Origin: a candidate division WWE3 bacterium RIFOXYC1_FULL_40_10
GTDB lineage: Bacteria; Patescibacteriota; WWE3; UBA101185; UBA10185
Assembly: GCA_001773215.1 (NCBI GenBank)
Contig: MEWB01000001.1
Location: 242,488-306,487 of the forward strand
DNA: 64,000 bases
Direction: 5' to 3'
Shown: piece by piece, positions 3,748 to 64,000 of the stretch
Numbering within the stretch: the first letter of the stretch is position 1
Layout of the letters: each line of letters starts with the position of its first letter
Made by a program: the position numbers and the translations under genes
Notes under the pieces: generated by a model
The model's database searches: none
Told to the model about the DNA's origin: nothing
What the model saw: the letters and a program-made list of their open reading frames with translations, nothing else

Positions 3748-5763
3748 TCAAGCGGGGAGAGACCTAATTACTAGGTGAGACCCTCTCCCCACCCTCTCCC
3801 CAAGCTTTGGGTATAACGATAGCTTATCGAAATATTCATCGGCTTCGGCCTTTGCTTTCTCGAGCAGTTCCAGGTCAAAAAAATCTGTGAGCTTTCCGTG
3901 TTGCACTGTTCCGAACAAGTCTCCTTGGCCTCTTATTTTTAGATCTATTTCCGCCAATTCTAAACCGTTATTAATGTTTTCTAGGTTTTTCAATCTACTC
4001 AAGCCAGTTTTTGAATTATCGCTCATAAATATAAAACAAAAGCCTTCTTTATCACCTCTCCCAACTCGTCCTCTTAATTGATGTAAACTTGCGAGCCCAT
4101 ATCTTTCGGCACTTTCGATAACCATAATTGTAGCGTCGGGTACGTCGATTCCCACTTCGATAACTGGGGTAGAAACTAACACCATTATCTCCCCCTTTCT
4201 AAATTTTTGGATGATATCCTCTTTTTCTTTCGGTTTCATTCGGCCATGTAATAACCCTATTGGAATATTCTTAAAAAATGTTTGTGATAACTTTAAAAAC
4301 TCATCCTCTGCCGCCTTAATTTCCGCAAAATCCTTGTTTTCACTGGACTGGATGAATGGGCAAACTATAAAAGTGGGTTCCCTCTTATTTGCTATCCACT
4401 CGTAAGCCTTGTCTCTCTGGTTATCAGCTACCACCTTGGTTGTAACTTTGCGCATTTTGTTTGGATGTTCAGTTAATACCGATATCGAAAGATCTCCGTA
4501 GAGTGTAAGGGCTAAGGTTCTTGGTATTGGGGTTGCAGTCATACTAAGAAGGTGAGGGGTTTTTTCTATATTTCCCAGTTGTACAGCTTTTTCCCTTTGT
4601 TCAACTCCAAACCTGTGTTGCTCATCTATAATCACCAAACCCACATCCTTATATTTTTCCTTAGAGAACAGCAAAGCATGTGTACCTATCAAAATATCCC
4701 AGTCTTGTCCGTTAGGCTTAGAGTTTCCTGTGAGCAATTTAACTTTTACACGTTCTTTGGCTAAATAGTTGTTAAAAGTTTCAAAATGCTGTCTTGCTAA
4801 AATCTCGGTAGGTGCCATATAAATGGTTCTTAGATTATTTTGATGTGTTACAAGCGAGGCTGCTATGGCAACTATGGTTTTGCCGGTTCCCACATCGCCC
4901 TCCAGTAAACGGTTCATGGGGTGGTATTGGCAAAGATCAGTTGTTATTTGGTTAATTGATCTGGTTTGCGATTCAGTTAACTCAAAAGGGAGTGTTGAAA
5001 CGAACCTATCGAATTGTTTTCGGTCAGTTACTAGTCTGTGGCTTTTTAGCTTGTTTTTCCAATCATATGATTTCTTATTCACCTTTAGCATTTGAACAAA
5101 AAGCTCTTCGAAAGCAAATCGTGCGCGGGATTTATTTGCCTGAGGTAAACTATCCGGAAAGTGGAGCTGCTCTAGCGCTAGAGTCAACCCGTAGAAATTG
5201 TGCTTGGCAATAAGTTTTTCCGGGAGGAATTCTTCTGCAAGAGCTGCTCCGGATTTTATCTGAGATAGCACGTCGTTAATCCTAGTGCGTAGCCATTTCG
5301 AACTAACTCCTGCTGTTTCGGGATAAATCGGCACTAATCTTGCTGTATTTAAGCTATTTTGAGTAATTTCTTCAAACTGTGGATTTACTAGGGCTATTTT
5401 TCCATTCGACTCCCCTACTCTGCCACTAATAAAGTAATTCGTATTTGGTTTTAAAATTCTGGTTATAAAATGTTGATTAAACCAAACTGCATCAATCATT
5501 CCCGTGGTATCTGAAAATACTGCTTTGGTAAGTTTTTTACCGGTTCTCGTGTAGATATTTTGGATTTTTTCCAAAACGCACTCGATAGTTACGGTAATAC
5601 CTTGTTCGAGATCGCAGATTTTTCGAATATCCGACAAATCATCGTACCTAAAAGGGAAGTGATATAAGAGGTCGCCTACTGTAAAAATACCCAAGTTCTC
5701 AAGAAGACGTGCATATTTAGGACCTATTTTATCCAGTCGTTGTATTGGGGATGTGAGTAGCAT
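3748..5763 (-). CDS. recG: ATP-dependent DNA helicase RecG
   Basis: 671 aa; wedge domain N-terminus (LYHFPFRYDD), Walker A GDVGTGKT, DEQHRFG (DEAH-type) and helicase C motifs. Confidence 0.9.
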   Translation of the reverse strand: MLLTSPIQRLDKIGPKYARLLENLGIFTVGDLLYHFPFRYDDLSDIRKICDLEQGITVTIECVLEKIQNIYTRTGKKLTKAVFSDTTGMIDAVWFNQHFITRILKPNTNYFISGRVGESNGKIALVNPQFEEITQNSLNTARLVPIYPETAGVSSKWLRTRINDVLSQIKSGAALAEEFLPEKLIAKHNFYGLTLALEQLHFPDSLPQANKSRARFAFEELFVQMLKVNKKSYDWKNKLKSHRLVTDRKQFDRFVSTLPFELTESQTRSINQITTDLCQYHPMNRLLEGDVGTGKTIVAIAASLVTHQNNLRTIYMAPTEILARQHFETFNNYLAKERVKVKLLTGNSKPNGQDWDILIGTHALLFSKEKYKDVGLVIIDEQHRFGVEQREKAVQLGNIEKTPHLLSMTATPIPRTLALTLYGDLSISVLTEHPNKMRKVTTKVVADNQRDKAYEWIANKREPTFIVCPFIQSSENKDFAEIKAAEDEFLKLSQTFFKNIPIGLLHGRMKPKEKEDIIQKFRKGEIMVLVSTPVIEVGIDVPDATIMVIESAERYGLASLHQLRGRVGRGDKEGFCFIFMSDNSKTGLSRLKNLENINNGLELAEIDLKIRGQGDLFGTVQHGKLTDFFDLELLEKAKAEADEYFDKLSLYPKLGERVGRGSHLVIRSLPA

Positions 5764-14176: not shown

Positions 14177-15829
14177 ATGCCCTATCTTAATAGATTATAT
14201 TTTTATCTTGTGTTGGTTGTGTTGTCTGTTTATCTTTTACCTGTTTCCGCCAGCACCAAGAAGCATTTTTACAACAATGGGGATGTGCTGTCTACGGTGG
14301 AAATTAATAATACTACCGAAAACGGTCCTGTTACCGTTGCTAATGACTATTATGGTATTGCAACAGCGAATATTGGTGATTTGGACGGAGATGGTATACA
14401 GGATCTTGCAGTGGCTGCAATGAGAGAGAGCAGCCAGGGTAGTTTAAAAGGTGCCGTCTATATTCATTACTTGAACAGGGATGGATCCGTAAAGGGTACA
14501 GTCAAAATCGATGATAGTACAACAAATGGTCCTGTACTAACGAACGAGGATTACTATGGACAAGGAATTACGGGAATAGGAGATTTGGACGGCGATGGAA
14601 CACTAGATCTCGCAGTGGGCGCTATTGGGGATGATAATGGCGGAAGTAGTCGGGGAGCGGTTCATATTCATTTTATGAACAGAAACGGTTCCATTAAAAG
14701 TACAGTCGAGATTAACGACAGCACCACAAATGGTCCTGACTTAACTGACTCGGACAATTACGGGTCTTCAACGGACAATATTGGAGATTTAGATGGTGAC
14801 GGAATAAATGATTTGGTGGTGGGTGCGGCGGGAGATGATAATGGTGGAAGTGGAAAGGGTGCTGTGCATATTCACTTTATGAACCAGAACGGTTCAATTA
14901 AGAGCACTGTGGAAATTAACGATAGTACCGAAGACGGTCCTGTGCTGACAGCAGGTGATTTCTACGGCAGATCGGTAGCTAATATAGGAGACCTGGATGG
15001 AGACGGTATCCAGGATTTAGCAGTGGGTACAATATACTCGGATAGTGGTGGCCAAGATCGCGGAACCATTTACATTCACTTCTTAAACAGGAACGGTTCC
15101 GTGAAAAGTACAGTCAAAATTGATGGTAGTACAACGAAGGGGCCCGTGCTTAATGACATAGATTATTACGGCATATCAATAACAAGTATTGGCGATTTGG
15201 ACATGGACGGCATACAGGAAATCGCGGTAGGGGCTTATGGCGATGACAACGGCGGGAATGCGCGTGGTACTGTGCATATTCACTTTATGAACCGGAACGG
15301 ATCGATTAAAAATACTATGGAAATAAACACGAACACGCCTAACGGTCCCCTACTAAGTACTGGCGACATGTTAGGTTATGGGATCTCCTCCATAGGAGAT
15401 CTTAACAACGACGGCATTCGAGATTTAGTAGTGGGTGCCACAGGAGACGATGCAGGTGGGTCTAATAAGGGAGCGGTACACATTCTCTTCATGAAACCCT
15501 ATTACACACTTACGTTTCTCAAGGATACCTCCTGCAAAGATAGAGAACCGGAAGAAACTACTTGGATTCAGCTTGAACCTAAAGACAATGGGATGAATCT
15601 AACCTGGACACAATATGATTCCCAACATGTGAGAATAAGGATTGATGATGGAACAGGAAATTACCCATGGGAAATGAGCAAAGCATCAAATGATGGACAT
15701 GAATTTTTACCCAATGTTGCCTCATGGCAGAAGATAAAACTTAGGGGAGTTAACGGATGCAGAGAAGGAGAGTTTTCGGAGGAAGTTTCGTATGCGAGTT
15801 ATCCGACTGGGTGGTATAACAGCCAGTAG
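14177..15829 (+). CDS. Secreted FG-GAP / integrin-alpha-like seven-repeat beta-propeller protein with C-terminal beta-sandwich-like domain
   Basis: 550 aa; signal peptide; seven tandem ~70-aa repeats each with Ca-binding IGDLDGDGIxDLAVG and GAVHIHFMNRNGS motifs. Confidence 0.8.
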   Translation: MPYLNRLYFYLVLVVLSVYLLPVSASTKKHFYNNGDVLSTVEINNTTENGPVTVANDYYGIATANIGDLDGDGIQDLAVAAMRESSQGSLKGAVYIHYLNRDGSVKGTVKIDDSTTNGPVLTNEDYYGQGITGIGDLDGDGTLDLAVGAIGDDNGGSSRGAVHIHFMNRNGSIKSTVEINDSTTNGPDLTDSDNYGSSTDNIGDLDGDGINDLVVGAAGDDNGGSGKGAVHIHFMNQNGSIKSTVEINDSTEDGPVLTAGDFYGRSVANIGDLDGDGIQDLAVGTIYSDSGGQDRGTIYIHFLNRNGSVKSTVKIDGSTTKGPVLNDIDYYGISITSIGDLDMDGIQEIAVGAYGDDNGGNARGTVHIHFMNRNGSIKNTMEINTNTPNGPLLSTGDMLGYGISSIGDLNNDGIRDLVVGATGDDAGGSNKGAVHILFMKPYYTLTFLKDTSCKDREPEETTWIQLEPKDNGMNLTWTQYDSQHVRIRIDDGTGNYPWEMSKASNDGHEFLPNVASWQKIKLRGVNGCREGEFSEEVSYASYPTGWYNSQ

Positions 15830-17780: not shown

Positions 17781-17856
17781 GCCACTGTGGACTATTGGTT
17801 AAGTCGACTAGCCTGTCAACTAGTATAAGAGGGTTCGATCCCCTCCAGTGGCCCCA
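17781..17856 (+). tRNA. tRNA-like gene with perfect acceptor/D/anticodon/T stems but 8-nt anticodon loop CCTGTCAA (GTC = Asp if the extra nucleotide is ignored); CCA encoded
   Basis: GCCACTG/CAGTGGC acceptor, GACT/AGTC D stem, ACTAG/CTAGT anticodon stem, GAGGG-TTCGATC-CCCTC T arm; opposite strand to pheST. Confidence 0.5.
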
Positions 17857-55977: not shown

Positions 55978-56141
55978 GATCTTTGTTTATGCAAGGTCTC
56001 ACCTATTTTTTGTTTCTAGTTTTTAAACTTCTAGTCCGTTTTGTGTAGTAATTTCTGTGGCTATCAATCTCCTTTATTGAATTGATCTGAGATTGTAAAT
56101 TACTACAAATATGATAACATCCAGCAAAAGAAGGATTAAGA

Positions 56142-57356
56142 ATGGAGGAGAGTTCGATGAAACATTATGACGATGAGGATGGACTCGAGAGTATTTATAC
56201 TGAGGATCTACCAGGTAGCCAATCAGGTATTGTTTTATATACCAAAACATCCGGTAATCAGATTTTACGAAAATTCAGAAAGGAATTTCCTGTTTTCTAC
56301 CATGCCATAAAGGCTTTACGTGACGAAAGCCCTTTTATACAAGCAGAAAGTATTTTAGTCCGAGAGAGTGGAATGGGTTTACTAATACCACTTTTGGCAC
56401 TGGAGAATAAGAAGGTGTTTTTCAGGGTATCAGTATGGTCCGCCGGGGACACGGTACTTGAACGAAACATGGAGCGCAACTACCTATCCCACATGTACAG
56501 TCTTCATGTGGAAGGGTCCAAAATTAAAGGCTATGGAGATATTGCTATTCTTGTGCAAGAACGTTTCCTGGATCAACGCAGCCTTGAGATCGAAATTTTG
56601 CAACTGCTAATGCATTGTTCCACGGGAATCCTCTATGTATGTAGCCATAAAAAAATGGGAGTAGTAACTCTACTGGAAAAATTGTCGGAAAAATACCCGA
56701 TGAAAGTGGAGGTAAAAGGTCGAGGTGGTGGGGGATCTCGTGTGATTAAGGTTACAAGATTGGGAGAATTGCCTACAGATCCAATCTTGAGAGGTGAAGG
56801 TGTCTCATACTATGTAAGACGTCGAAAGATTGTTTTTACAACTTTTGGATCAGTATTTTCACCAAAGAGAATTGATGCAGGTACTGATGCGCTTATTAAG
56901 TATGTTTTGCATCACGAGACTCGAGTTTTACCGTTTTCGCTTTACGACCTGGGGTGTGGCTATGGGGCAATAGGGATTAGCATGGCCAAAGCTTATCCTT
57001 TGGTGGACGTCACAATGACTGATATTGATGCAAAGGCGATTGAATTAGCTAATATAAATGTAGCTCGAGCTGGCGTCGCTTCTAGAACCAAGGTTGTTCT
57101 TTCAGATGGTGCATCAATGGTTAAGAATCTCCAGTTTGATCTCATACTGTCAAACCCGCCGCTTCATCTTGATAGGAAAAACCTAATTCAGCTAGTGCTT
57201 GGGGCACGACGGAGATTGAAAAAGAATGGGAGGATGCTCTTGGTAGTTGAAGACAGCAGGGTCGATGAGTTAAGGGAAATTTTTTTTGATCGCGGAGTTT
57301 ATCTTAAAATTGCGCAGAAAAGCAGCAATTACGCGATCCTGGAAGTTACGAAGTAA
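56142..57356 (+). CDS. SAM-dependent rRNA (guanine-N2) methyltransferase of the RsmC/RlmG two-domain family
   Basis: 404 aa; C-terminal DLGCGYGAIG SAM motif and NPPLH catalytic motif; N-terminal duplicated inactive domain. Confidence 0.7.
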   Translation: MEESSMKHYDDEDGLESIYTEDLPGSQSGIVLYTKTSGNQILRKFRKEFPVFYHAIKALRDESPFIQAESILVRESGMGLLIPLLALENKKVFFRVSVWSAGDTVLERNMERNYLSHMYSLHVEGSKIKGYGDIAILVQERFLDQRSLEIEILQLLMHCSTGILYVCSHKKMGVVTLLEKLSEKYPMKVEVKGRGGGGSRVIKVTRLGELPTDPILRGEGVSYYVRRRKIVFTTFGSVFSPKRIDAGTDALIKYVLHHETRVLPFSLYDLGCGYGAIGISMAKAYPLVDVTMTDIDAKAIELANINVARAGVASRTKVVLSDGASMVKNLQFDLILSNPPLHLDRKNLIQLVLGARRRLKKNGRMLLVVEDSRVDELREIFFDRGVYLKIAQKSSNYAILEVTK

Positions 57357-57423
57357 AAAATAAGAGCAGTGTGTTGGTAGAATAACCACCAGCAAACTGC
57401 TCTATCGTTTATTTAACTTATTA

Positions 57424-58155
57424 TCAAAGGTAGGCATGTTGTAACCACATACAGATCAAAGTCAGAGCCAAAAGCATTAGACCAGTCCTACTAATCTTAA
57501 CGTCATTTAACTCAGTTCGAGTCTTGTAAAGTCCAAATCCTCTTGTTTCAAGAGCTATGGCAATGTTATCTACCATTCTTAGCTCTGTTGCTACTAGGGC
57601 GATGATTGTTGTCTTAATCCTCTCCTTCCCCTTTTTTACTTTTCTTAGTTTTTGCACATCTTCAATTGACTGAGCATCTCTTTGCATAATAGGCATTAGT
57701 CGAAGTGCAAGATAGCAGATTCTCGATATTCTATAGGGTACTCCAATCCTCACTAGCGAATTTTCCAGATCCTGAGGGGATGTGGTAACAGAATATGCCA
57801 TTCCAACCGCAATCAGACCAAAAATACGTAGTGCTATAGCTAAGCCAATCATTAGTCCATCGTATGAGAAATCAACACCCAGAACATTCCATCCGGGTCC
57901 GTTTCTAACTACACCCTGGTATAGAACAATGAACCAACTACCAACGAATAGTACTAATGTAGACCTGATATATCGCATGACATTCAATCCAGCGCCCACG
58001 AACGAAATGAACATCAAGCTCAAACATACCAACGCGACCGTTTCAATTTGTCTTAGGCCATATAGCCAAAGCGCCACCATTAGCACCCACAAGAACTTTG
58101 TTATGGGATCAATCTTGTGAAAAATCTTGCGTCCTGGTTTATATGCTAATTGCAT
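57424..58155 (-). CDS. ecfT: ECF transporter transmembrane (T) component
   Basis: 243 aa; conserved ALETRGF (A-x-E-x-R-G) coupling motif; overlaps upstream ATPase gene. Confidence 0.8.
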   Translation of the reverse strand: MQLAYKPGRKIFHKIDPITKFLWVLMVALWLYGLRQIETVALVCLSLMFISFVGAGLNVMRYIRSTLVLFVGSWFIVLYQGVVRNGPGWNVLGVDFSYDGLMIGLAIALRIFGLIAVGMAYSVTTSPQDLENSLVRIGVPYRISRICYLALRLMPIMQRDAQSIEDVQKLRKVKKGKERIKTTIIALVATELRMVDNIAIALETRGFGLYKTRTELNDVKISRTGLMLLALTLICMWLQHAYL

Positions 58156-59726
58156 TTTTGCACCTCCAAGGCCTTTGGCTCAGTAGGAAACTGGGAGTTC
58201 AGATATTGAACGGCAAGTCTTAATGTAAGATTTGATTCGATCAACCCAAGTTTGTCGACCAATTCTCTACCCAACATGCAGAAATCTCCCATATAAAGTA
58301 GTTTTCCAGCCCCAAGCATACAGATTTTTTTGATGTAATTGCCAATGATTCTGTAGTCATGTGTGATTGTTACCAAAGTCTCGGTATATTTTCCTAGGCA
58401 ATCCTTGAGAAAGTTGACTTGTAAGGAATCTAGTCCTGCAGTGGGTTCATCAAGAATGAGAAGATCCGCGTTACAGGATAATGCTAAAGCAAGTGCTAAA
58501 CGTCTTTGTTCTCCGCCCGAAAGTTCAAATGGCGATTGATATCGGTATCTCTCTAAGTCAAACTCAGTAAGTAATCGAGTAAGCTTCCCGGATTCAAAAT
58601 TCTGTCCATGGGTGAGTTCTTGCTCAACACTTGTTGTAATAAACCCCAAACTTGGTTTCTGCAGCATAAGTGCGGGTCTGCGAATTTTTGATTCAATTTT
58701 TCCTGAAGTTGGTTTTCGCAACCCAGCCAACAATCTCGCTAGGGTAGTTTTGCCGGATCCATTGTGACCGACTAGCGCATACCTAGTTCTGGTTGAAAAG
58801 CCCGCCGATATATCAAAGAGGCCATTACCTTCCGAGTAAATGTAAGATACCCTTTCAAATATAACTGAGTAGTTATTATTCAGTCTGTAATTGCTAGTAT
58901 CTGGTTTAAGGCAGTGATTTGGAGGGAGGACAAGCTTGCCATCTGTAAATTCAAGTTGAACGCCTTGGCTTCGTACGTGTTCTTCAATTGAATAGAGTTG
59001 AGGACGTTCTATGTGGTATTTGTCTAATTCATTGCTATATTCCTTAAGTTGGTCCATAGAAATATCCAGTTCAACACGTCCCCTATCAAGAACTAACAAG
59101 CGTGTTGCCACTTCCATAAATGGATCCAACCAGTGAGAAGCAACGATTATTATATCAACATACTTACGCAAAATTTCTAGCGTTTTTACTACAATTTTAA
59201 TCCCATGAGGATCGAGGTGTGCCAAGGGCTCATCAAAAAGCAATACCTTTGGTCTGAGGGCTAGCAAACTAGCTATGGCTAATAGCTGAAGCTGCCCTCC
59301 GGACAAAGTGTCAACACTTCTAGTTCGTAGGTGATTAATATTCAACATGTGTAACGAGTTTAAGCCCCTTTCCAGTAGTTCATTTCTTGGGTACAACAAA
59401 TTTCCTAATGCGAAGGTTACTTCCTCGAGCACTGTGAGGTTGGTAATTTGACTGTCTGGCTCCTGCAACACGACCCCGATTTCACCTGCTAAATGTATGA
59501 GCCCCATAGAGAGTATGTCCTTGTCGTCAAGTTTTATGGATCCAACAAAATCCCCACCGTTATAGGCTTGTGTAACGCCTAGAATCGACTTGATAAGTGT
59601 GGATTTGCCGCTTCCATTAGGGCCCGCCAGTACAAGGAACTCTCCGGGTCGGATGCTGAAACTAATATCTGATAGGACTTGCGTTTTTTTTGGATAAGAG
59701 TAAGAAACACTCTGCAGACTCAGCAT
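58146..59726 (-). CDS. ECF/ABC transporter ATPase with two fused ABC domains (EcfA-EcfA' fusion)
   Basis: 526 aa; two Walker A (GPNGSGKST, GHNGSGKTT), two signature motifs (LSGGQLQ, LSGGEQRR), two Walker B. Confidence 0.85.
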   Translation of the reverse strand: MLSLQSVSYSYPKKTQVLSDISFSIRPGEFLVLAGPNGSGKSTLIKSILGVTQAYNGGDFVGSIKLDDKDILSMGLIHLAGEIGVVLQEPDSQITNLTVLEEVTFALGNLLYPRNELLERGLNSLHMLNINHLRTRSVDTLSGGQLQLLAIASLLALRPKVLLFDEPLAHLDPHGIKIVVKTLEILRKYVDIIIVASHWLDPFMEVATRLLVLDRGRVELDISMDQLKEYSNELDKYHIERPQLYSIEEHVRSQGVQLEFTDGKLVLPPNHCLKPDTSNYRLNNNYSVIFERVSYIYSEGNGLFDISAGFSTRTRYALVGHNGSGKTTLARLLAGLRKPTSGKIESKIRRPALMLQKPSLGFITTSVEQELTHGQNFESGKLTRLLTEFDLERYRYQSPFELSGGEQRRLALALALSCNADLLILDEPTAGLDSLQVNFLKDCLGKYTETLVTITHDYRIIGNYIKKICMLGAGKLLYMGDFCMLGRELVDKLGLIESNLTLRLAVQYLNSQFPTEPKALEVQKCN

Positions 59727-59829
59727 ATTCTCCTCCTTCTCAGTATTTGATGTAAAAAAATGGCCCGTCTTAACAAAATAATAGACGGGCCAGCCTCAAC
59801 ATCGATACTGATTGTATTGTATTGTAATG

Positions 59830-60417
59830 TTAGGTTTCTAGTACAGTAGGAGGCTTAGGTGGATATTCACTGAGCGGTTTTATACCAGCTTTTTTTACCG
59901 CGAGTAACGCCCAGTATACCCAGAGTGAAATCCAAACTTTTCCCATGCCCCCAGGTCCAAAATAGCCCACAAGGCCTTCGGTAGTGAGTGGAACTGCATC
60001 ACGCCAAGCATCAACCGGCGCTGCGAAGATCCATGCCAACAACGAGCCGGCAACAATCATATTAAGGCTGAAATTGCCTTTGAACCAGACGAACACAATA
60101 TCTGCGGCCAAACCCTCTACCAGATTGTAGAATATGGCAAAGAGGCCCACAGGGCTGCCGAACAGCACTTCGATCACGCCGGACAATGTTTTGACAATCA
60201 CGCATGCTCCCGGCTTGCGGATGAGAAAGAGGATCAAAAAGCTTACAAGGTTGAAGCCAAAGCTTCCAAACAGATTGACAAATGGACCAAGAACTTGTGC
60301 CTGAAATACCAAATGCGCCCACAGAACTTGGAAGAGGCCGGCAATGCCAACCATCAGGGCCATGATTACAATGTCCCTGGTAGTAAAGTTAAACCACTTC
60401 ATACTGCCGTTTTTCAT
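59830..60417 (-). CDS. Probable ECF transporter substrate-specific (S) component
   Basis: 195 aa, about 6 TM; immediately upstream of ecfAA'-ecfT. Confidence 0.5.
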   Translation of the reverse strand: MKNGSMKWFNFTTRDIVIMALMVGIAGLFQVLWAHLVFQAQVLGPFVNLFGSFGFNLVSFLILFLIRKPGACVIVKTLSGVIEVLFGSPVGLFAIFYNLVEGLAADIVFVWFKGNFSLNMIVAGSLLAWIFAAPVDAWRDAVPLTTEGLVGYFGPGGMGKVWISLWVYWALLAVKKAGIKPLSEYPPKPPTVLET

Positions 60418-60535
60418 GTCCTTATTCTCCTTTATTTGCCGATTGATCAGATTTCGATTTCAAGGTTCGTATTCTCTCGGTTATTTTGTATGTGAATGTA
60501 ACATATGACAGCCCTGACATCAATAGCTTAGGTAA

Positions 60536-60790
60536 TTAGCGCAAAAGGTATGCACCGAATATAATATCCTTATCACCAAGGATAAGTAGAATTCTATTAC
60601 TATCTTTATCAAGTACAAACCTCATGCCAGGCGCCCCGAAATCCGCAAGAGATCTCCAGACACCGCTACTGGGTAAGTATTCTTTATAACCAGAAGTAAT
60701 TGCCTGTTGTCGAACGGTGATATTATCGACAATCGTTGTTGGATCCGAGATTGTGTTAAAGAAGAAGCCTTTTTCAGGATTTTCAAACAT
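60536..60790 (-). CDS. Small hypothetical protein (84 aa)
   Basis: ORF track; GGAGGTGAATAC SD. Confidence 0.35.
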   Translation of the reverse strand: MFENPEKGFFFNTISDPTTIVDNITVRQQAITSGYKEYLPSSGVWRSLADFGAPGMRFVLDKDSNRILLILGDKDIIFGAYLLR

Positions 60791-60883
60791 GTTGTATTCA
60801 CCTCCATTTTTCTAAGATTTTGAGTATTATAGAACTACTAGAGGCTTATGTAAATATCTGGGGGTCAAGTTTTTAAAGAGATT

Positions 60884-62215
60884 TTATTTGTTAACAGCTT
60901 CAATGAACTTTTTAATTCTATTTAATCCTTCAACCATTTTATCCAAATTATTCGTGAATGTTAAACGATACCAATTTCCTTTGCTTTTAGGCATATCAAA
61001 TGCTTCTCCAGGTGCCAATATAACTCCTGTTTTAAAGAACATCTCCTCAAAAAAGTCGTACGTTGATCCCTCATGAATGATGTTAACTCCCATATTTATC
61101 CCCGCATCGGGTGTAATTGCTCTCATATACTTAGATTTGTATATTTCATTAAGTACAGCGTCTCTATTGTTTTTGTATGATTCCAGGGTGCTATTGACCT
61201 GGCGTTCATACTCGATCAGATCCTTTTTGTAGTTTCCAATTATCTTAAATTCTCTTGCGTTTTCAATCTTAGTTCTAGAATCAATATCTGGGCCGCCTTT
61301 CATCAGTGTTCTAAGTAATATGTCTTTAACAATAAAATTGTCAAATACCGTGGGGGGACATGTATAAGAAAGATCGGCTAAAAGATTCATCTCCGCTGTT
61401 ACCTTATCATCTGCCAAGACATATCCTATCCTTATTCCAGGGGCGGCACGGTCTTTGGAAAAAGCTTTAACTCTGATTATATAATCTTCTTTTTGAGGAA
61501 TACTTCCAATGTTAGGGATATGCTTGTAAGCCATATCGTAAAATATTTCATCTATAATCAAATAGATCTTCCTCTTATTAGAGATTTCTACTAGTTTAAT
61601 AAGATCTGCTTTGTCAAAAAACTTTCCAAACGGAAAATTTGGGTTAGTAAGTATAATAAATCGGGTTTCCCGATCGACTTGTTTCTCTAGATCTTCAATT
61701 AATGGTAAAAATCCCCGTTCTTCCTTACCGCATACTTTTTTTACTTTAAATGTTTTCCACATAACACTTTCGTACACTGGGTAAGTTGGCTGGACAATTA
61801 TCGCATTTCCTTTGTATTTATAATGTTTCATTAATACTTGAATTACACTAGAAAATCCTCCTGTTGCACTCAAAACAATAGCGACATTGTTAAAAGTAAA
61901 TCTATTGATGCCCTGAATATGGTTTTCATAATCTGCGATTACTTTTCTAACGTAAGGGTTTCCAAGTTGGTAAGTGTATTCAAAATAAGAATTTCTCACC
62001 GAATCGATGAGAGAATTTATCAGACACTTTGGGATTGGAAACTCATCTCGATCTATGTCACCGCTACCCATATGTATAAAAAATTTATTCTTCTTTTCCA
62101 CTTGTCCATGAAAATCCAACCATGCCTTGATATAGCGGTGATAGTATCTGTTCGCTCTGGGAAGCCTATTATCCGTATTGGATATTTTAAGGTTTCTTGA
62201 TAAAGGTATATTCAT
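60884..62215 (-). CDS. PLP-dependent aminotransferase, class I/II fold
   Basis: 443 aa; LTNPNFPFG, IDEIFYD, PLP-lysine block KAFSKDRAAPGIRIGY. Confidence 0.8.
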   Translation of the reverse strand: MNIPLSRNLKISNTDNRLPRANRYYHRYIKAWLDFHGQVEKKNKFFIHMGSGDIDRDEFPIPKCLINSLIDSVRNSYFEYTYQLGNPYVRKVIADYENHIQGINRFTFNNVAIVLSATGGFSSVIQVLMKHYKYKGNAIIVQPTYPVYESVMWKTFKVKKVCGKEERGFLPLIEDLEKQVDRETRFIILTNPNFPFGKFFDKADLIKLVEISNKRKIYLIIDEIFYDMAYKHIPNIGSIPQKEDYIIRVKAFSKDRAAPGIRIGYVLADDKVTAEMNLLADLSYTCPPTVFDNFIVKDILLRTLMKGGPDIDSRTKIENAREFKIIGNYKKDLIEYERQVNSTLESYKNNRDAVLNEIYKSKYMRAITPDAGINMGVNIIHEGSTYDFFEEMFFKTGVILAPGEAFDMPKSKGNWYRLTFTNNLDKMVEGLNRIKKFIEAVNK

Positions 62216-63315
62216 AAGATCTGATCAAAAGTGAATTTCTTATCGAACGAATCCGGTTTTTTTATGAATTCAAGTGCTTCGACTGTACTGAGTATTGGCC
62301 TTGAGTATTGCGCTCTCTCATCCAAGGCTACCCTTGGACAAATGGTTGAAACAAGTATATCGAAGTCCATACAGTTTATGGAATTTATATTTAGGAAGTC
62401 AACTACTATGACTCCAGTAGAATAACCTTTCTTTATAAATTCATCTTGCAAATTTGTAAGAATTTCTTTTCTTGATTGCCCTAGCTTATTACTTACAATA
62501 AACCCTACTCTTTTACCTTTTAATAATGATTTCTTGAGAGCGGTCAACTTGTTCAAGTGTAGCTTAAGTAACCTTTTATATTCGTAAATAAAAGTCTTTC
62601 CGGACAAGGGATCAAAGCACCACACGTCCTTTTTTGTCGACAAAGCGACCGGCAGTGCATGGAAACCCCCTCCTTCTATCATAATAAATTTCTGAACCTT
62701 AGCTTTAATCCTAGATGCTGCGGAGGGGTTGCACCCGAGAATCTGTGCATCAAAAGCCAGTCTATCAGTACCCTTGGCTGTGTATACTTCAATACCTTCC
62801 ATTGTGAGAGCGTTTCTTATTTTAGGGACGTTTTTAATATATTGTATAGAACTTATTAGCCCTACTTTTTTAATCTTACGAGATTTAAGATAGCTAATTG
62901 CTTCAATTATCGCAGGTGTTACGTCGATTTTTAGGTAAAGTGGAACAAAAATAATCTTAAAGCCTTTAGGAAGTTGTCTATTACCAATGGCTACATTACC
63001 AAAGTGAATTATCTTATGTATGTTTAGTGTTTCAAACTGATAATACTTAATATCGCAAGCACCAAAACAGGAGTCACCTGATATTACGAGCTTAGTTCCA
63101 AGTTTTTTACTAAGGTAGGATATAAGATCGTGTGTAAACTTTTTTAGACCCTCTGGTATTTCAATGCCAACAATTTCGTTAGATACTTTTCCGAGCTCTA
63201 GTTTTATTCTATCTAGTTCAAGATCATATTTATCAAGGAAATCTGCGAAGCTTTCGTGTTTGGGATTAAGAGGAGCGAAGACCGCCCTCCCAGTATGATG
63301 GTATGGTTCTATCAT
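62212..63315 (-). CDS. Dph2-like radical-SAM 3-amino-3-carboxypropyl transferase homolog (archaeal diphthamide synthesis Dph2 family)
   Basis: 367 aa; collinear with archaeal Dph2 (from memory): IEIPEGL, FGACD, IFVP, QILGCN, GGGFHALPVAL, DPLSGK, IVSNKLGQ, ICPRVALDE blocks including the three domain Cys; stop overlaps aminotransferase start (ATGA). Confidence 0.75.
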   Translation of the reverse strand: MIEPYHHTGRAVFAPLNPKHESFADFLDKYDLELDRIKLELGKVSNEIVGIEIPEGLKKFTHDLISYLSKKLGTKLVISGDSCFGACDIKYYQFETLNIHKIIHFGNVAIGNRQLPKGFKIIFVPLYLKIDVTPAIIEAISYLKSRKIKKVGLISSIQYIKNVPKIRNALTMEGIEVYTAKGTDRLAFDAQILGCNPSAASRIKAKVQKFIMIEGGGFHALPVALSTKKDVWCFDPLSGKTFIYEYKRLLKLHLNKLTALKKSLLKGKRVGFIVSNKLGQSRKEILTNLQDEFIKKGYSTGVIVVDFLNINSINCMDFDILVSTICPRVALDERAQYSRPILSTVEALEFIKKPDSFDKKFTFDQIL

Positions 63316-63383
63316 GAGACTAGTTTAGCATGTATAGTCAATGATAAGTAAAGTGATAAGGAGGTCAAAAATATTTTTCTATC

Positions 63384-63596
63384 TTACTCCTCGACATAAT
63401 CTTCAACAAAACCACATGAGGAACATTTATATGCAGCTATTTTTGGTTGTTTATTTAAATTGTTAAATAACTTGCTTATTGTGCTTTCCTCTTGCCAACG
63501 TGCTCCTATTATAGCTCCTGAGGTAAGAATTAAACCTTTTTTCATTTCGTTATTACATTTCGGACATGTTTTATTCATAGAATAAGGATACTCCAA
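63384..63596 (-). CDS. Small zinc-ribbon protein (CPKC...CSSC)
   Basis: 70 aa ORF; two CxxC pairs; start may be internal MNKTCPKC. Confidence 0.45.
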   Translation of the reverse strand: MEYPYSMNKTCPKCNNEMKKGLILTSGAIIGARWQEESTISKLFNNLNKQPKIAAYKCSSCGFVEDYVEE

Positions 63597-63648
63597 AAAA
63601 AGTGAACTTTCATCCCCAATTGGTGGGTCCTCTGTAAGGATGTGCGAA

Positions 63649-63999
63649 CTACATTAGTAGGTCTAATCCACTAGTCCAGAAAACTAACATCATTCCTTGT
63701 GTTATAGCCATCACAAATAACAATAAGTTTGCTAAATTCAAATTTCTTTTAGCTATTAGTCCAAGCATTATATATATCGGAAATATAACCAATATATATC
63801 TTGGCATGCTAGTTAGACCTGTAAAAAGCGGTAGTAAAAAAAGGATAAGCGCGTACGAAGAGTACGCTGGTTTCAAATATCTAAAGCACATTAACAAGAT
63901 AAATAGAGTCAGAAGAACAACTATTGAAGTAAATCTATGTTGATACAAATTACTTTCGAGTCCGTCAAATATGTATTTAATGGGAGACCCGAATCTGCG
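63649..63999 (-). CDS. Membrane protein, N-terminus runs off window end (open frame continues upstream of listed start)
   Basis: ORF 63649..63948 begins with TTG; frame stays open to position 64000; hydrophobic. Confidence 0.4.
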   Translation of the reverse strand, partial: RRFGSPIKYIFDGLESNLYQHRFTSIVVLLTLFILLMCFRYLKPAYSSYALILFLLPLFTGLTSMPRYILVIFPIYIMLGLIAKRNLNLANLLLFVMAITQGMMLVFWTSGLDLLM

Positions 64000-64000
64000 T

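Follow-up and report, generated by a model that had tools for sequence, protein, structure and literature searches.

The window considered here is a stretch of 64,000 nucleotides from the candidate division WWE3 bacterium RIFOXYC1_FULL_40_10 (GenBank assembly GCA_001773215.1, contig MEWB01000001.1, positions 242,488 to 306,487). Near its end it encodes, on the reverse strand, a 367-aa Dph2-like protein of the non-canonical radical-SAM (S-adenosylmethionine) type (62212..63315), and the stop codon of this gene overlaps in an ATGA with the start codon of a gene for a 443-aa enzyme of the class-I aminotransferase fold that is predicted to use pyridoxal 5'-phosphate (PLP; 60884..62215, also on the reverse strand). 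Non-canonical radical-SAM chemistry has Dph2 as its founding example, and to our knowledge elongation factor 2 (EF-2) is the sole acceptor known for this enzyme. The initial annotation of the window, made from the sequence without database searches, had already proposed a Dph2 homolog that is translationally coupled to an aminotransferase, and all open reading frames (ORFs) as well as the ATGA overlap have been found where it placed them.

The Dph2-like protein matches PF01866 with 189.6 bits (gathering score 33.2, E=1.2e-55) and the archaeal Dph2 equivalog model of NCBI, TIGR03682, with 233.1 bits (cut-off 202.8), its best sequence relatives in the PDB are archaeal Dph2 proteins (6bxm, with E=1.7e-39, 6q2d and 3lzc), and the seven conserved blocks on which the homology had first been based are all present in the translation. 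An AlphaFold2 (AF2) model with a predicted local distance difference test score (pLDDT) of 92.2 gave target-normalised template modelling (TM) scores of 0.85-0.90 when compared by Foldseek with the Dph2 crystal structures 6q2e, 6bxo, 6q2d and 3lzc, and the protein as modelled has the three-domain Dph2 fold, just as had been expected from a structure prediction. Three cysteines, C87 (codon 63055-63057), C195 (62731-62733) and C326 (62338-62340, all on the reverse strand), align with the ligand motifs of archaeal Dph2, one in each domain, and the earlier placing of the Fe-S cysteine triad in equivalent positions thus stands. The triad is invariant in an alignment of 35 sequences, and it is kept in at least 90% of 10 members of the bacterial clade described below and in at least 85% of 142 archaeal representatives; C83, which is part of the FGACD block, is not conserved throughout. 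The SAM pocket of CmnDph2 comprises G158, H180, Q237, V265, R285, D289 and D290 (PMC10669111), and by alignment these correspond to G194, H219, Q280, L308, R328, D332 and E333, all seven positions being either identical or conservatively replaced. Five of them (G194, H219, Q280, R328 and D332) are kept in both sets, again in at least 90% of the bacterial clade and at least 85% of the archaeal representatives. Judged from its sequence, the protein is a true member of the Dph2 family with a predicted intact Fe-S and SAM site. As the ligands of the [4Fe-4S] cluster are kept, and likewise a SAM pocket of the Dph2 style, the enzyme should still cleave SAM, and it very probably still performs the Dph2-type cleavage together with 3-amino-3-carboxypropyl (ACP) transfer.

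The gene is resident in a bacterial genome, as had been claimed. The window also encodes RecG, the peptidoglycan synthase PBP1A, and bacterial-type PheT, ThrS and TyrS, and the same gene order recurs, flanked by bacterial genes, on 23 or more contigs that were assembled independently and reach lengths of ~904 kb, which excludes a chimera or an archaeal contamination. The composition, which had been described as host-like, is so only roughly, with a GC content at third codon positions (GC3) of 0.32 in the Dph2-like and aminotransferase genes versus 0.35-0.40 in housekeeping genes, and the pair is thus slightly more AT-rich. A defence system and carriage by a virus or plasmid were rejected: PADLOC gave no matches, no viral relatives were found, and the single plasmid match was a dph2 on an archaeal megaplasmid. 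Bacteria possess neither diphthamide nor the genes for its synthesis (PMC3541065, PMC6143161), and neither Dph5 nor Dph6 was recognised among the window and locus genes that were scanned against family libraries. The lack of diphthamide in bacteria supports the view, already taken in the initial annotation, that EF-2 is not to be expected as acceptor in a bacterial host. NCBI records automatically name the protein 'diphthamide biosynthesis enzyme Dph2', a name that for a bacterium is almost certainly that of the wrong reaction, and in full-text literature searches bacterial Dph2 homologs were not found to be described.

A rare bacterial Dph2 clade

A k-mer/HMMER search returned four relatives of 50-64% identity, after which identity drops to at most 33%, and below this drop every named match is archaeal. 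Of 1.84 billion representatives searched exhaustively with a profile, about six clusters scored above the archaeal continuum, and these group as one clade in a neighbour-joining tree. When 185,579 species-representative genomes were scanned, one other bacterium was recovered, which is also a WWE3 member, and the other matches were archaeal, mainly from Thermoplasmata and Methanosarcina at ~28-34% identity, the list being dominated by archaeal Dph2. Two further clade loci came from a metagenome scan. The archaeal sequences nearest to the Dph2-like protein are only 26-34% identical to it. On the strength of these searches and of the tree, the bacterial Dph2-like clade is monophyletic and rare. 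In the best reading, the gene was acquired horizontally by a small group of bacteria of the candidate phyla radiation (CPR), namely WWE3 and relatives.

The clade is marked by features that the initial annotation did not contain. Every member has an N-terminal extension with the motif H-[H/Y]-T-x-[R/K]-P, which archaeal Dph2 does not have; in the window the defining Y5-H6-H7-T8 is encoded at 63292..63303 (reverse strand), within an extension of ~28 residues, and residues 1-7 have a pLDDT below 50 in the AF2 model. Clade-specific residues were scored on 152 sequences, the 10 clade members versus the 142 archaeal representatives, and three replacements stand out, each present in 9-10 of the 10 members: H107N, at a position with His in 96% of the archaeal sequences (codon 62995-62997), G214E, with Gly in 77% (62674-62676), and D333E, with Asp in 86% (62317-62319, all on the reverse strand). 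Further clade-specific positions are K90, F94, N162, D230, C233 and an inserted Y246. The extension and the three replacements are sequence hallmarks of the clade, and a kept core with a rebuilt remainder is the pattern that a change of acceptor would produce. In comparison with the archaeal Dph2 homodimer (3lzd, 6bxn, 6q2d), the WWE3 protein thus shares the Pfam family, the three-domain fold, the cysteine triad and the SAM-pocket residues, but it occurs in a bacterium, belongs to a separate clade, carries the extension together with H107N, G214E and D333E, and has a PLP enzyme as operon partner with no Dph5 or Dph6 recognised nearby.

The aminotransferase and alternative partners

The coupled PLP enzyme matches PF00155 with 111.9 bits (cut-off 19.7), and the PLP-binding lysine K254, D222, Y226 and the carboxylate-binding R417 are invariant in its alignment. 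Where the canonical motif N-P-T-G has the Asn that binds O3' of PLP, there is a phenylalanine, F194 (61634-61636), and this is a Phe in 10 of 10 CPR members of the aminotransferase clade; in the AF2 model, residues 193-195, exactly around F194, fall below a pLDDT of 50. The modelled fold is confirmed as class-I and resembles alanine aminotransferase, aspartate aminotransferase and PseP equally. A substrate-defined equivalog was not found, with 70 of 70 NCBIfam matches far under their cut-offs (the best being GntC with 153 versus 415 bits), and the full-length alignment with the tyrosine/nicotianamine aminotransferase model also scores below cut-off. The top sequence match in the PDB is PseP (8k3h, E=2.7e-22), a PLP enzyme of the SbzP/PseP type that uses the aminobutyryl moiety of SAM by gamma-elimination. 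The window enzyme matches it over its own full length, but aligns only to PseP residues 416-808, and the ~400-residue N-terminal region of SbzP/PseP, which PseP requires for its activity and for binding beta-NAD (PMC13351049), is missing from the 443-aa protein.

In every related locus with a Dph2 ortholog of 50-64% identity, the aminotransferase gene follows directly after the Dph2 gene, at a distance of -4 to +12 nt, which holds for five divergent lineages: besides the window, the adjacency is kept in the loci L001/L010/L090, L002, L003-5/L091 and L006. The Dph2-linked aminotransferases also form a subclade of their own, with an indel and motif signature by which they differ from homologs of 47-51% identity. 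The pairing is tight and conserved, and it is limited to the WWE3 subclade. The initial proposal of the aminotransferase as a pathway partner thus holds for the relatives within this subclade, but does not extend to deeper clade members, which have another coupled protein or no aminotransferase.

One of these members, P0063, is encoded at locus L100, on a contig that is bacterial and carries the bS1 gene, and the same protein occurs also on an 898-kb contig. Its Dph2 gene appears to share an operon with genes for an ABC-2 permease and a RihA/C-like nucleoside hydrolase, has a GMP-reductase/IMPDH-like gene and one for a HAD phosphatase in its vicinity, and overlaps with a gene for a 338-aa protein (X338, L100:11226-12242). 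A second X338 (30% identical, E=2e-36) is encoded at L096:1297-2310, downstream of the clade member P0064. The X338 proteins are translationally coupled to P0063 and P0064, are unrelated to the aminotransferase, and have no Pfam, NCBIfam, PADLOC or PDB match; besides this pair, no unknown neighbours common to the clade loci were found. The deeper loci indicate that the N-terminal motif travels with the Dph2 core, while the coupled partner varies by lineage. About 5 kb from the P0063 gene, on the opposite strand, L100 also encodes a PLP decarboxylase (4378-5604, reverse strand) with its best match to histidine decarboxylase (140 bits, below the cut-off of 305), which is suggestive because Dph2 chemistry targets the imidazole of histidine. 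Downstream of the Dph2 gene of a third member, P0066, the region L094:5637-14827 resembles a conflict island or a mobile element, with genes for AAA_14/DUF4143, a Pol-beta nucleotidyltransferase, PcfJ, NADAR, Metallophos and an RNA ligase.

Possible acceptors and reactions

The leading reading is that of a repurposed Dph2 in an accessory pathway, in which ACP is put on a small-molecule acceptor other than EF-2, and it is put forward tentatively, with slightly more doubt than belief. What we infer here comprises the formation of an ACP radical, the sequence of the two steps, the small-molecule acceptor and any role of a transporter. The Dph2-like enzyme would cleave SAM reductively to methylthioadenosine (MTA) and an ACP radical or organometallic intermediate, and the ACP would then be attached to an unsaturated carbon of the acceptor, which would probably be an imidazole- or purine-like heteroaromatic that is imported rather than made. 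In the WWE3 lineage, the coupled PLP enzyme would transaminate the alpha-amino-acid end of the product to a 2-oxo acid, or possibly decarboxylate it. As ACP ends in a free alpha-amino acid, the moiety that is bound by class-I aminotransferases, the coupled enzyme would most simply act there, and its carboxylate-binding R417 is kept. The rebuilt acceptor side, with the H-[H/Y]-T extension and the three hallmark replacements, suggests that the acceptor is not EF-2. A small-molecule pathway is favoured because the clade is rare and patchy, because transporters are adjacent in several lineages (energy-coupling factor (ECF) importer genes in the window, L003-6 and L091, and the ABC-2 permease with the nucleoside hydrolase in L100), and because the partners are interchangeable; such a distribution is more in keeping with accessory metabolism than with the modification of a core translation factor.

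An analogy to such a sequence of steps exists in nicotianamine synthase with nicotianamine aminotransferase (NAAT), CntL, and MccD/MccE, where ACP from SAM is put onto an acceptor and a PLP enzyme then transaminates or decarboxylates the ACP end, but these enzymes have unrelated folds and attach ACP to N or O in polar SN2 reactions, and no homology is implied. As to the radical chemistry, Dph2 and ArsL are the only enzymes named as forming an ACP radical (bioRxiv 10.64898/2026.04.29.721666). ArsL, of the arsinothricin pathway, is likewise bacterial, generates the ACP radical from SAM, acts on a small molecule and has methyltransferase and permease genes in its cluster, but it is a canonical radical-SAM enzyme of PF04055, a TIM barrel with a CX3CX2C motif and As(III) as acceptor, without kinship to the WWE3 protein in sequence or fold. 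A transfer from archaea to bacteria with patchy distribution, a new function and vitamin transporter genes next to it has been described for Dph6/DUF71 (PMC3541065), which is the closest precedent; this is a PP-loop ATPase for which a role in B12 salvage has been proposed, and the likeness consists in the transfer of a diphthamide-pathway family.

Several points weigh against the small-molecule pathway. Outside of this proposal, Dph2 is known to us only as a protein-modifying enzyme. Comparisons with NCBIfam, the PDB and structures did not resolve a substrate of the aminotransferase from its sequence or fold, and the homologs of 47-51% identity that were checked (3 of 3) occur without Dph2, so that the pairing could reflect an insertion beside a housekeeping gene. 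The aminotransferase is also not universal in the clade, as it is absent as a partner from the deeper members P0063, P0064 and P0066, the last of which (L094) is preceded by a CbiF-like TP_methylase gene. As for the importer, ECF orthologs lie beside Dph2 in only 2 of the 4 WWE3-subclade lineages and are absent at L001 and L002, and the S-component resembles the thiamine/hydroxymethylpyrimidine (HMP) binder YkoE, so that it may belong to a plain vitamin importer. The TP_methylase beside P0066 was also considered as a Dph5 and rejected, since it is CbiF-like and the Dph5 model is not in its match list.

That the Dph2 family is known to act only on a protein histidine keeps another reading alive, according to which protein modification was retained and the target is the enzyme's own N-terminal His6/His7, in cis or across a homodimer, or else another protein, with the PLP enzyme or X338 tailoring the adduct. 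The clade motif contains the required histidine, is kept whatever the downstream partner, and is predicted to be flexible, and an aminotransferase homolog has reportedly been implicated in the 5-aminopentanolylation of EF-P in Bacillus. Self-modification would, however, mean a single turnover, the N-terminal motif is unlike the diphthamide loop of EF-2, the two small proteins encoded next to the pair are free of histidine, and the patchy distribution speaks against an essential target, which together leave this reading unlikely, if still the strongest competitor. BipA, which is adjacent in L002, was rejected as a target because it is found near the aminotransferase gene also in L008, which has no Dph2, and the adjacency is thus explained by synteny.

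Slightly less likely again is that there is no common pathway, and that Dph2 landed beside a general CPR transaminase and works independently on an acceptor of its own. Members of the aminotransferase clade do occur alone or with a Peptidase_S51 gene, the synteny of HIT/BipA genes with the aminotransferase exists without Dph2, and other Dph2 clade members do without the aminotransferase; against this stand the spacing of at most 12 nt or overlap, which survives a divergence to 50-64% identity as well as the local rearrangement of the ECF genes, and the indel and motif signature common to the Dph2-linked aminotransferases. A nucleobase acceptor, either in RNA or in a free nucleotide or nucleoside, whose purine or imidazole ring would undergo C-H chemistry, is improbable. 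The nucleoside hydrolase and the GMP-reductase/IMPDH-like and HAD phosphatase genes of L100 would suit it, as would the NPPY-type N-methyltransferases encoded nearby in the window and in L003, but the hydrolase could equally clear the by-product MTA, it would be unusual for a transaminase to act on a group bound to RNA, and no tRNA or rRNA gene is linked. Finally, canonical diphthamide synthesis on an EF-2-like factor, or an archaeal assembly or binning artefact, to which the TIGR03682 score above the equivalog cut-off and the NCBI name Dph2 could point, is hardly credible for a locus that is found on at least 23 independent contigs amid bacterial genes, with near-invariant archaeal residues replaced, no Dph5 or Dph6 recognised in the scans, and a bacterial EF-G that has no diphthamide (PMC3541065, PMC6143161).

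With the small-molecule pathway as the preferred reading and the N-terminal histidine as its main competitor, a broader statement that spans the two is plausible, if a shade more doubtful than the preferred reading itself: there may be a second, bacterial Dph2-fold branch that performs ACP-radical chemistry on a small molecule or on its own N-terminal His, with lineage-specific tailoring partners. If true, the known ACP-radical reactions would number only three, an enzyme of the Dph2 fold would for the first time be known outside of translation-factor modification, and the branch would bring ACP-radical chemistry to organisms that are thought to be almost without biosynthetic capacity. The bacterial clade offers a concrete second system in which the control of the regiochemistry of SAM cleavage and of acceptor choice can be studied, and it could reveal a new metabolite, cofactor or modification in CPR bacteria with their otherwise minimal metabolism.

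Neighbouring genes and further observations

The ECF importer adjoins the Dph2 locus in the window and is encoded on the reverse strand by genes for an S-component (59830..60417; PF09819, YkoE-like, with YkoE 5edl as best PDB match, E=3e-7), a fused double ATPase (A-A', 58146..59726) and a T-component of the CbiQ family (57424..58155), the latter two assigned by domain scan and locus comparison. The presence of S-component, fused ATPase and CbiQ-type T-component in one cluster corresponds to a group-I ECF transporter of the YkoEDC type; in L003-6 and L091 the order is different. Riboswitch control of the ECF/Dph2 cluster was considered and rejected, since sensitive Rfam scans of the window region 56000-64000 and of L002-L006 gave neither a thiamine pyrophosphate (TPP) riboswitch nor any other match at E<=1. 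Between the S-component and ATPase genes, at ~59757-59800 on the reverse strand, there is a strong GC hairpin (GGCCCGUC...GACGGGCC) followed by a U-run, which surfaced by way of a spurious AgvB match; it has the look of a terminator or attenuator inside the operon and could set the ratio of the S-component to the ATPase and T-component. Convergent with the ECF genes, an MTS-type N-methyltransferase with an NPPLH motif is encoded on the forward strand (56142..57356), PrmC/RsmC-like with scores below all cut-offs. An ortholog of 30% identity comes after the aminotransferase gene in L003/L091, and a link of this methyltransferase to the Dph2 function is uncertain.

The two small ORFs that flank the pair, both on the reverse strand, had initially been regarded as operon partners and potential substrates, and this idea could not be upheld. 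The first encodes a DUF6487 zinc-ribbon protein with a CxxC...CxxC pattern (63384..63596), 68 bp upstream of the Dph2 gene, and the second, 93 bp downstream of the aminotransferase gene and with GGAGG as its ribosome-binding site, an 84-aa protein (60536..60790); the latter has no family match in library scans and contains neither His nor Cys. No homolog of either was found in any related locus and both proteins are without histidine, and for these two reasons they are neither conserved partners nor acceptors for an attachment to C2 of histidine, and were rejected as substrates. A role of the zinc ribbon as a Dph3/Kti11-like electron donor was rejected as well, since it is a DUF6487 protein instead of a CSL zinc finger and is not co-conserved. 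Between the zinc-ribbon gene and the Dph2 gene lies a promoter-like site (TTGACC-16-TATCAT, 63341..63368, reverse strand), which is weak evidence for a promoter, as similar sites are about as frequent in the region as expected by chance.

Elsewhere, a C-terminal domain of ~110-140 aa and 45-55% identity is shared by otherwise unrelated, probably secreted WWE3 proteins. It has been found in the window at 15455-15820, within a 550-aa ORF (14177-15829), and in proteins encoded at L001:8954-9970 and L001:5634-8342, and one of the proteins with this domain is encoded directly upstream of Dph2 in L001. On the forward strand of the window, at 17781-17856, there is also a tRNA gene with a normal cloverleaf, an encoded CCA and an 8-nt anticodon loop (CCUGUCAA), to which ARAGORN assigned no anticodon, and which reads as a tRNA-Asp(GUC)-like tRNA with an extra C 5' of U33.

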